Source of the DNA: a virus
Virus record (IMG/VR): IMGVR_UViG_3300027659_000022
Coordinates: 22,366-86,365 of that record
Length of the DNA: 64,000 bases
Reading direction: 5' to 3' (one strand)
In this document: positions 56,335-56,913 of the stretch, piece after piece
Layout of the letters: the number at the start of each line of letters is the position of its first letter
Numbering within the stretch: position 1 is the stretch's first letter
Made by a program: the position numbers and the translations under genes
Notes under the pieces: model-generated
Seen by the model: only the letters and a program-made list of their open reading frames with translations
Told to the model about the DNA's origin: nothing
The model's database searches: none

Positions 56335-56913
56335 ATGCCTGACATTGACATAGACTTCGTTGATAGAGATTCTGCACTTAAACTGTTTCGACATATCAGA
56401 GCCAGTCGTGTGGATCAAGGTCAATTAATCAAACACAACACCGGTGTGTATTTTCACGCAGTTCCAGTAAATGCTGAGGCCAATGTCTGTGCTGTGCCCT
56501 ATGATCAAGCCGAAACGCAAGGATACTTCAAGATAGATTTTTTAAATGTTGGTATCTATAAAGGTGTTCGCGACGAAGCGCATCTAGTGGAGTTAATGAA
56601 TCAGGAGCCTCTATGGGATCTTTTAGAAGACGACTCTTTCGTCGCCTTGCTGTTTCACGTCAACGGGCATGGCGACATATTACGACAAATGAAACCCAAG
56701 ACGGTGGAGCAGCTAGCAGCGATACTAGCCATAATTCGTCCAGCAAAGAGACACCTAGTTGGAGAGAGTTGGTCGATAATTTTGAAAGAAGTTTGGCAAA
56801 AAACAGAAAACAATGAATATTATTTCAAGAAAAGCCATGCCACTGCCTATGCTGTGGCCATCGTGGTGCAGATGAATTTGATCTGTGAAAAAATTAGTTA
56901 TGGGTATGCATAA
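56335..56913 (+). CDS. Miniature DNA polymerase III alpha (DnaE-like) palm/fingers protein
   Basis: The collinear DnaE motifs MPDIDIDF, KHNTGVY, GYFKIDFL, LAAILAIIRP and YYFKKSHATAYA occur within 192 aa. Confidence 0.85.
   Translation: MPDIDIDFVDRDSALKLFRHIRASRVDQGQLIKHNTGVYFHAVPVNAEANVCAVPYDQAETQGYFKIDFLNVGIYKGVRDEAHLVELMNQEPLWDLLEDDSFVALLFHVNGHGDILRQMKPKTVEQLAAILAIIRPAKRHLVGESWSIILKEVWQKTENNEYYFKKSHATAYAVAIVVQMNLICEKISYGYA

Follow-up and report, generated by a model that had tools for sequence, protein, structure and literature searches.

The 64,000-nucleotide stretch of viral DNA analyzed here (the window; positions 22,366 to 86,365 of IMG/VR virus record IMGVR_UViG_3300027659_000022) carries a small open reading frame (ORF) that is very probably the C-terminal unit of a two-gene, minimal DNA polymerase III alpha subunit (Pol III alpha) of group 2.2 (RaK2/Atu_ph07-like) jumbo phages, the two products presumably forming one auxiliary polymerase. 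We refer to this ORF and its relatives as the C-unit and to the partner as the N-unit. An earlier, sequence-only reading had described the ORF as a novel miniature DnaE with a function of its own, and its interpretation is partly supported by the results below. The observation behind it, an intact ORF of 192 amino acids (aa) with DnaE motifs in order, is confirmed. The novelty is not, as the same split “minimal DNA polymerase III alpha” is described in group 2.2 jumbo phages, e.g., RaK2 and Atu_ph07, in passages of Iyer, Anantharaman, Krishnan, Burroughs, and Aravind (2021, Viruses 13:63, PMC7824862). The family, its two-gene split, and its coexistence with a family-B polymerase are all already known from that publication, and the window copy is an ordinary member. 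Added here are the exact split site, the abundance of both halves in metagenomes, the purifying selection, and the rare single-chain fusions.

The C-unit ORF begins with an ATG, and its translation opens with MPDIDIDF. It is tightly coupled to the genes on both sides, with a single base between the TGA of the preceding ORF (56331 to 56333) and the C-unit ATG, and with the C-unit stop codon (TAA, 56911 to 56913) overlapping a following ATG at 56913. The protein supplies palm strands carrying the aspartates D3, D5, and D68 and the lysine K66, together with a cut-down finger subdomain that contains the IRP and KKSH motifs (Table 1). The motif KHNTGVY probably corresponds to the “HAGG” motif of DnaE, to judge from motif order; it lies outside every computed alignment, and in the secondary structure of the predicted model its hairpin occupies the place of the DnaE thumb insertion.

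Several comparisons link the C-unit to Pol III alpha. The protein matched phrog_11778, annotated as “DNA polymerase” (profile of 197 positions), with an E value of 3.6e-67, and matched phrog_405, which represents full-length DnaE, more weakly (E = 2e-9, residues 48 to 137). A Pfam scan returned a finger-domain match below threshold (PF17657, residues 108 to 138, E = 0.0069, 16.2 bits against a cut-off of 22), and PF07733 (DNA_pol3_alpha) did not score the C-unit protein. These weak results are no argument against homology, because the models are too distant from the C-unit. As a single sequence, the protein was collinear with Mycobacterium tuberculosis DnaE1 in a phmmer search of the PDB (residues 1 to 12 with 413 to 424, 106 to 138 with 630 to 664, and 151 to 174 with 763 to 787); the whole-sequence E value of 1.2 is not significant, and a family profile was needed. 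Built from 89 diverse C-unit relatives (31 to 60% identity), this profile matched 11 PDB sequences at E ≤ 1, of which nine were Pol III alpha (E = 1.1e-5 to 1.9e-4) and the remaining two were MoaE-type chains (E of about 0.9). Profile positions 54 to 139 aligned to residues 539 to 641 of Escherichia coli alpha and positions 153 to 178 to residues 742 to 768, and C-unit K66 and D68 fell on K553 and D555 of the E. coli protein (numbers counted along the printed alignment).

The predicted structure gave a concordant picture. An AlphaFold2 (AF2) model of the C-unit, computed on the 89-sequence alignment, had a mean predicted local distance difference test score (pLDDT) of 96.4 and a predicted template modeling score (pTM) of 0.89. 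When this model was compared with the PDB using Foldseek, ranks 1 to 12 were all named Pol III alpha or DnaE (E = 1.6e-4 to 4.3e-2; TMq, 0.38 to 0.60), ranks 13 and 14 were large entries titled just “DNA polymerase,” and rank 15 onward was noise. Pol III alpha is the best and only credible structural match, which bears out the resemblance to the Pol III palm for which an AlphaFold comparison had been suggested. The likeness of the C-unit to DnaE exceeds chance. Approximately 380 residues of DnaE are thus compressed into 192 in the C-unit, which has no counterpart of the PHP, thumb, clamp-binding, or OB parts. The alignments to DnaE and a search for the PHP domain therefore agree with the earlier description of much-shortened regions between motifs and of missing PHP, HhH, OB, and clamp-binding regions.

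The C-unit is widespread and tightly constrained. At E ≤ 0.001, at least 7994 near-length proteins (clusters) match it, and a length of exactly 192 aa predominates among the 120 listed; an exhaustive search of 50%-identity representatives gave 417 matches at the same threshold. Among 80 related IMG/VR loci, the ORF was intact in every one, was exactly 192 aa long in 64, and began with MPDIDIDF in 78. When these loci were aligned together with the window (n = 81), 47 columns were invariant, including D3, D5, D7, K66, D68, R135, P136, K165, and H168, and D3, D5, K66, D68, and P136 were still invariant over the 89 representatives of 31 to 60% identity. All three catalytic acidic positions credited to the protein by the sequence-only reading are therefore kept in close and in diverse relatives. 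The ratio of nonsynonymous to synonymous substitution rates (dN/dS, Nei-Gojobori) had a median of 0.151 (interquartile range, 0.112 to 0.186; maximum, 0.286) over the 240 of 3240 pairs with 0.05 < dS < 1.5, the others being omitted as too close or saturated. Judged by these ratios, the C-unit is under strong purifying selection.

These data bear on whether the ORF could be a pseudogene fragment, still open by chance, that is left over from the decay of a full-length dnaE acquired from a host. The protein has one-sixth of the length of DnaE and is barely detected by the Pfam DnaE models, as such a remnant might be. However, that view is already contradicted by the thousands of near-length relatives, by the intact and mostly length-invariant ORFs, by the low dN/dS even at its maximum, by catalytic residues that do not vary among relatives of 31 to 60% identity, and by synteny that is kept from freshwater metagenomes to RaK2. 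We give it practically no credence, and the dN/dS check that had been asked for upholds the earlier judgment that the gene is not a pseudogene.

The earlier reading had also concluded that the gene is not simply split, and on this point it is overturned, as the C-unit corresponds to one half of a split gene, the other half being a distant, conserved protein with the GRGS segment. In each of three isolate genomes (Phosso, Atu_ph07, and RaK2), PF07733 identified one further small ORF, with matches that pass the cut-off and cover profile positions 18 to 98 of 260 (E = 7.9e-13, 5.2e-10, and 3.4e-9, respectively). These N-units are 177, 177, and 172 aa long and lie approximately 224, 182, and 33 kb, respectively, from the C-unit gene. 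Their C-terminal end reads ...GVGRGSSV.SY.L.LIG.H.V.S..Y.LD..EFLx, which in DnaE order is the segment immediately preceding PDxDxDF. In relatives, the N-unit is about 155 to 177 aa long and generally ends with ...Y.L...EF(L/F)x, precisely where MPDIDIDF of the C-unit begins. The motif W-G-x-G-R-G-S was invariant in 34 of 34 N-units, which end 0 to 9 residues past EF(L/F)x. On the other side of the junction, the DxD motif falls within the first 20 residues in 88 of 90 near-length representatives, and C-units start 1 to 17 residues before DxD. The aligned ends indicate that the split site is exact and valid family-wide.

The N-unit also accompanies the C-unit beyond the three isolates. A profile built from the isolate N-units matched 5 of 12 C-unit-bearing IMG/VR contigs of at least 100 kb, including G008 (364,554 bp), the sole contig of the 12 rated 100% complete, in which about 180 kb separate the two genes. 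The N-unit family numbers 4608 clusters (E ≤ 0.001), with PF07733 in every one of the 120 listed. Among phage records, the N-unit was found in 79 and the C-unit in 96, with the same host genera; the smaller number for the N-unit fits its weaker E values. As a side observation, a protein of 119 to 153 aa adjoins the N-unit downstream in RaK2 (L006, 1802 to 2161, + strand), Phosso (L004, 1761 to 2222, + strand), and Atu_ph07 (L005, 1087 to 1497, - strand). The three proteins share an N-terminal region with a ...MNARGD... motif, and their recurrence suggests that this small protein may be a fixed neighbor, perhaps a partner, of the N-unit.

The GRGS loop and helix, with which the Pol-beta-like nucleotidyltransferase palm begins, hold the phosphates of the incoming nucleotide in DnaE. 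Because the C-unit protein begins at the DxD strand, it lacks this GS nucleotide-binding segment when taken alone. This is a difficulty for the proposal made in the sequence-only reading, namely, that the C-unit is a self-sufficient, minimal Pol-beta-fold nucleotidyltransferase, maybe aided by the small ORFs upstream, and serves a new purpose, e.g., tailing, the modification of proteins or nucleotides, or the synthesis of a signal. The proposal can point to the presence and invariance of all three acidic residues and of K66, to the compact and confident AF2 model of the lone protein, and to its own contig, on which no partner was found. Against it, the protein opens with the DxD strand in 78 of 80 loci and 88 of 90 representatives and so leaves out the fold-defining GS segment, and that very segment is encoded by a conserved gene of its own in this group of phages and is fused to the C-unit in two proteins. 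Completion in trans by the upstream ORFs of 75 and 65 aa is not borne out either, as they occur in only 51 and 28 of the 80 loci, respectively, and neither has a DnaE-family match in Pfam or PHROGs. We therefore consider a self-sufficient C-unit quite improbable.

Natural single-chain proteins provide a further view of how the two units relate. In two proteins, P0220 (375 aa) and P0257 (336 aa), an N-unit is followed by a C-unit, which is the order in DnaE. In P0220, the C part occupies residues 190 to 371 and residues 72 to 185 match the N-unit profile (hhalign probability, 99.7%; E = 1.4e-25); in P0257, the C part occupies residues 112 to 278 and residues 4 to 111 match the N-unit profile (95.5%; E = 1.5e-8). 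In alignment A6, which contains the two fused proteins, 31 N-units, and the first 10 C-units, so that its C part has just 12 rows, N-units stop and C-units start at the same few columns of P0220, and the halves are joined directly. A larger MAFFT alignment (A5) of the fusions, 31 N-units, and 89 C-units was discarded, as the N-units were misaligned over the C part, and an alignment of the A6 type with a hand-picked, diverse set of 10 C-units in place of the first 10 was not correctly aligned. An AF2 model of P0220 computed on A6 had a mean pLDDT of 84.1; residues 1 to 79 were poor, and most 10-residue blocks past residue 80 exceeded 90. Its top 18 Foldseek matches were named Pol III alpha or DnaE1 (13 matches), PolC (2 matches), or untyped “DNA polymerase” (3 matches). 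The best, 2hpi, had an E value of 5.4e-8 (TMq, 0.56), compared with 1.6e-4 for the C-unit alone, and such structural matching partly mirrors likeness to solved DnaE structures.

A search for longer proteins yielded two matches among 617 word-sharing candidates; because this search was word-limited and missed P0220, it gives no estimate of how rare fusions are. One match, P0391 (390 aa), has methyltransferase Pfam domains and covers 41% of the C-unit query. The other, P0392 (550 aa, metagenomic), combines an exonuclease domain (PF00929) with a PHP domain (PF02811) and is 83% identical to the C-unit over 18% of this query. P0392 could be a piece from the N terminus of a conventional C-family polymerase, with a DxD region resembling that of the C-unit family.

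The fusions and the ends of the two units also address the idea that a split intein links the halves once they are translated, or that the gene was interrupted by a mobile element, so that an ordinary long polymerase is rebuilt. There is precedent for a dnaE in two distant pieces. However, the ends of the N-units and the starts of the C-units hug the junction and leave no room for intein halves, and the natural fusions join the halves directly. In addition, no PHP domain (PF02811) was found at E ≤ 1 in any of five records, i.e., the record containing the window and four relatives, including the complete G008, so no long DnaE can be rebuilt. An intein-rebuilt replicase is accordingly hardly conceivable. 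The search for complementary DnaE or PHP fragments elsewhere in the genome, which the sequence-only reading had named as a test of its interpretation, came out both ways: a complementary fragment, the N-unit, does exist elsewhere in relatives, and no ordinary replicase is reassembled from it.

Several points weigh against the assignment of the C-unit to a two-gene polymerase. Seven of the 12 long C-unit contigs have no detected N-unit; this is weak counterevidence, because all seven are rated incomplete (29 to 79%). They include G001, the closest long relative, whose C-unit is 85% identical and which is rated 79% complete. The record containing the window (86 kb) shows no N-unit either: the N-unit hidden Markov model run against its 819 six-frame ORFs gave a best E value of 0.14, and PF07733 had no match at E ≤ 10. 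Because the record is rated 25% complete, the phage itself may still have an N-unit, and the lack of a family-B polymerase and of a PHP domain on it is uninformative for the same reason. The fusions are rare (2 among 150 listed representatives) and may have originated as assembly or gene-calling artifacts. Cover of the gene from RNA libraries consists of contigs only, which are no proof of transcription, as DNA may be present in such libraries. Finally, in open-access full text, we found neither a biochemical or genetic test of the minimal Pol III alpha family nor a demonstration of activity for either unit or for the pair, and the polymerase terms looked for were not present in a 2026 review, “The biology of jumbo phages.”

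Taken together, the N-unit and the C-unit would associate non-covalently into one Pol-beta-like active site, for which the natural fusions alone give indirect support, and the N-unit gene of this phage would lie on the approximately 75% of the genome outside the record. Without thumb or clamp-binding parts, the pair would act as a distributive, non-proofreading auxiliary DNA polymerase that makes short stretches of DNA. The search for a family-B polymerase that the sequence-only reading had called for was productive: an ORF of about 890 to 900 aa was found in three of the five records (the complete G008, G009, and G001), with none in G012 (83% complete) and none on the window's own contig (25% complete). 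Minimal Pol III alpha has been proposed to work with the family-B enzyme in one-strand synthesis or in repair (PMC7824862), and we likewise envisage that it would serve beside a family-B replicase in repair, gap filling, or one-strand work. A DnaQ-like exonuclease (PF00929) adjoins the module in RaK2 and is weakly detected in G001; it was absent at E ≤ 0.01 from the window's contig and from G008, and because it is not detectable in the complete G008, it is no universal partner.

In another scheme, both units would still build one active site, but that site would belong to a template-independent nucleotidyltransferase, engaged in end or nick tailing, in DNA modification, or in the synthesis of a signaling nucleotide, perhaps against host defenses. 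The absence of all of the parts that give DnaE its processivity and proofreading (thumb, clamp-binding, OB, and PHP), the presence of a family-B replicase in relatives, and the failure to find in G008 the DnaQ-like exonuclease that lies near the RaK2 module are in keeping with such an enzyme. The finger motifs of Pol III alpha contact the template and the incoming deoxynucleoside triphosphate, and the corresponding residues of the C-unit (R135/P136 and K165/H168) are strongly constrained, which speaks against this scheme. Moreover, the gene sits in a conserved block with a primase (70 of 80 loci) and a DnaB-type helicase (61 of 80 loci), and this conserved position next to primase and helicase favors replication or repair rather than signaling. 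We regard template-independent activity as unlikely, and the auxiliary polymerase is preferred.

What this auxiliary polymerase does can be stated only more tentatively. We speculate that it might be a working C-family polymerase without thumb, clamp, or proofreader that has its own task, such as taking over primers from the adjacent primase, filling short gaps, or bypassing lesions, which we consider possible rather than probable. If this is true, then, as Iyer et al. suggested, no smaller C-family polymerase would be known, and the pair would serve as a living model for the ancestral Pol III core. An active pair would define the minimal C-family polymerase and bear on the origin of bacterial Pol III, and, if the pair works as a polymerase, the natural fusions would be ready-made test constructs.

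Table 1. Features of the window in and around the C-unit gene (counts refer to 80 related IMG/VR loci)
Feature	Positions	Strand	Details
UvsW-like superfamily-2 helicase	48504..49997	+	ResIII, DEAD, Helicase_C; upstream boundary of the conserved module; uvsW at the same relative position in RaK2
Upstream neighbor, phrog_11058 (function unknown), 254 aa	55145..55909	+	E = 5.1e-58; found in 80/80 loci
Two small upstream ORFs, 75 aa and 65 aa	55909..56333	+	Present in 51/80 and 28/80 loci
Probable C-unit of split minimal DNA polymerase III alpha (Mg2+- and template-binding unit)	56335..56913	+	192 aa; phrog_11778, family profile against PDB, AF2 model, Foldseek
PDIDIDF, residues 2 to 8	56338..56358	+	Strand with catalytic aspartates D3 and D5; very start of the protein; aligns to MPDIDIDF, 413 to 420, of M. 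tuberculosis DnaE1
KHNTGVY, residues 33 to 39	56431..56451	+	Second strand of a beta-hairpin (model strands 21 to 27 and 30 to 39); H34 and G37 conserved at ≥90%
GYFKIDFL, residues 63 to 70	56521..56544	+	Third catalytic aspartate, D68, and lysine K66; aligned to VKFDFLGL of E. coli alpha
LAAILAIIRP, residues 127 to 136, finger motif	56713..56742	+	P136 invariant, R135 at ≥90%; aligned to ...ALVALFRPG, 632 to 641, of E. coli alpha
YYFKKSHATAYA, residues 162 to 173, finger motif	56818..56853	+	K165 and H168 conserved at ≥90%; aligned to YGFNKSHSAAYA within 742 to 768 of E. coli alpha
Reverse-strand neighbor, phrog_11637 (function unknown)	57532..57903	-	E = 2.6e-33; 79/80 loci
DNA primase (T4 gp61-like, Toprim)	58772..59803	+	phrog_47, E = 1.7e-32; Toprim_2, 20.9 bits (below the cut-off of 22.1); 70/80 loci
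DnaB-like replicative helicase (gp41-like)	61978..63411	+	PF03796, E = 2.7e-18; phrog_19, E = 9.1e-69; 61/80 loci

The gene neighborhood of the C-unit is conserved across the group. The window, RaK2, Atu_ph07, and Phosso share the order UvsW-type helicase, protein of about 250 aa, one or two small ORFs, C-unit, reverse ORF of about 120 aa, virion protein, primase, and DnaB-type helicase. The presence of neighbors in the 80 related loci was assessed with tblastn (E ≤ 1e-5), which has lower sensitivity for short proteins. The ORF matching phrog_11058 begins at 55145, where the sequence-only reading had taken an ATG at 55226 as the start, and toward the N terminus its product shows a C2H2-like zinc-finger signature that is weak and falls short of the Pfam cut-offs. 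Proteins of similar size occur at this position in RaK2, Atu_ph07, and Phosso (a likeness by size and place), and we consider the protein a candidate replisome accessory and not the missing half of the polymerase. The reverse ORF likewise recurs at the same place in the three isolates, with 118 to 121 aa.

Several other genes of the window are of note. The 65-aa ORF (56136 to 56333, + strand) matches only positions 505 to 559 of the 559-position phrog_4098 (E = 1.7e-12), and may be a free-standing copy of a module found at the C terminus of a larger phage protein. The gene for a 2OG-Fe(II) oxygenase (56913 to 57530, + strand; PF13759, E = 4.4e-9; phrog_81) lies between the C-unit and the reverse ORF and overlaps the C-unit stop codon. 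Only 4 of the 80 loci have it, and RaK2, Atu_ph07, and Phosso lack it at this position; the gene appears to have been inserted into the replication module recently. Between the primase and DnaB genes lies a carbamoyltransferase gene (60493 to 61962, + strand; PF02543 and PF16861; 55 of 80 loci), preceded by a 199-aa ORF (59897 to 60496, + strand) found in 1 of 80 loci. A full-length, flavin-dependent tryptophan halogenase (12940 to 14412, + strand; PF04820, E = 3e-107) is encoded among the structural genes.

The window lies within an 86,365-bp record rated 25% complete, from which the genome would be roughly 345 kb. A search of phage records gave 96 C-unit matches, every one listed being a jumbo phage, among them Sinorhizobium phage Phosso (55% identity), Atu_ph07 (52%), the PA5oct group (48%), and RaK2, GAP32, and E. 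coli jumbo phages (about 39%). In these records, the C-unit relatives are annotated as “DNA polymerase,” as “DnaE-like DNA polymerase III alpha,” or as hypothetical. The window also encodes a tail sheath and a T4-type terminase, and these features, with the shared gene order, place the source phage in the RaK2/Atu_ph07 group of jumbo myophages.

The stretch was found at ≥95% of sampled words in 14 DNA runs, labeled as freshwater, lake water, or (4 runs) fungus metagenomes; 6 of the 14 may include the source sample. Small shares in marine and estuary RNA runs (X17 to X20) carry no information on habitat. Contigs of a metatranscriptomic library (X15) match positions 54771 to 56852 with zero differences, and a second library (X16) contributed two 151-base pieces; X15 has no cover over 56892 to 57576, a gap that proves nothing. 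Both an X15 contig and a DNA contig (X7) diverge from the window upstream of about 56519 to 56530, inside the C-unit gene, with loose ends. These breaks point to the co-occurrence of strain variants, which would recombine or differ in this gene.

Among known systems, the closest are the C-units of the isolates' split minimal Pol III alpha (RaK2 ORF124, Atu_ph07 gp074, and Phosso gene 437). The window copy shares with them the phrog_11778 match, 39 to 55% identity over at least 94% of the length, the DxD start, and the neighboring genes, and it differs from them in nothing of kind; it comes from an uncultivated freshwater phage whose clade is fixed at 192 aa, with its own N-unit presumably off the contig, and the clade has inserted neighbors, the 2OG-Fe(II) oxygenase and the carbamoyltransferase. 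The published system resembles it as a whole, as the relatives have a family-B polymerase, no other DnaE domains, and an N-unit that is a distant, separate gene; the passages of Iyer et al. on group 2.2 phages likewise report no other Pol III domains in them (PMC7824862). Single members had been noted before: earlier genome papers give truncated Pol III alpha genes in phage CBB (CBB_328, 172 aa) and in Atu_ph07 (gp316), and the Sharanji paper lists a “DNA polymerase III DnaE.”

With bacterial Pol III alpha (DnaE), the C-unit shares the palm strands with the acidic triad and the lysine and the two finger motifs, all in the same order. In contrast, it has about one-sixth of the length (192 aa versus 1100 to 1200 aa) and a palm split over two polypeptides. 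The distance from DxD to the third aspartate is 63 residues, versus about 150 in E. coli alpha; residues 642 to 741 of E. coli alpha (about 100 residues) are represented by 13; and nothing corresponds to the part beyond about residue 780, in line with the lack of PHP, thumb, clamp-binding, and OB parts. The split-intein DnaE of cyanobacteria is also encoded by two distant genes, the halves being spliced into a normal long DnaE. Unlike that system, neither side of the N-unit/C-unit junction carries intein sequence, and the split lies at a different site. Group 3.2 jumbo phages (phage G type) encode host-like, full-length DnaE or PolC with PHP that serves as the replicase, according to passages of the same paper (PMC7824862). 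Like these enzymes and phrog_405, to which its match is weak, the C-unit is a phage-encoded C-family polymerase component, whereas, unlike group 3.2 enzymes, it is minimal, split, and, in relatives, found alongside a family-B polymerase.

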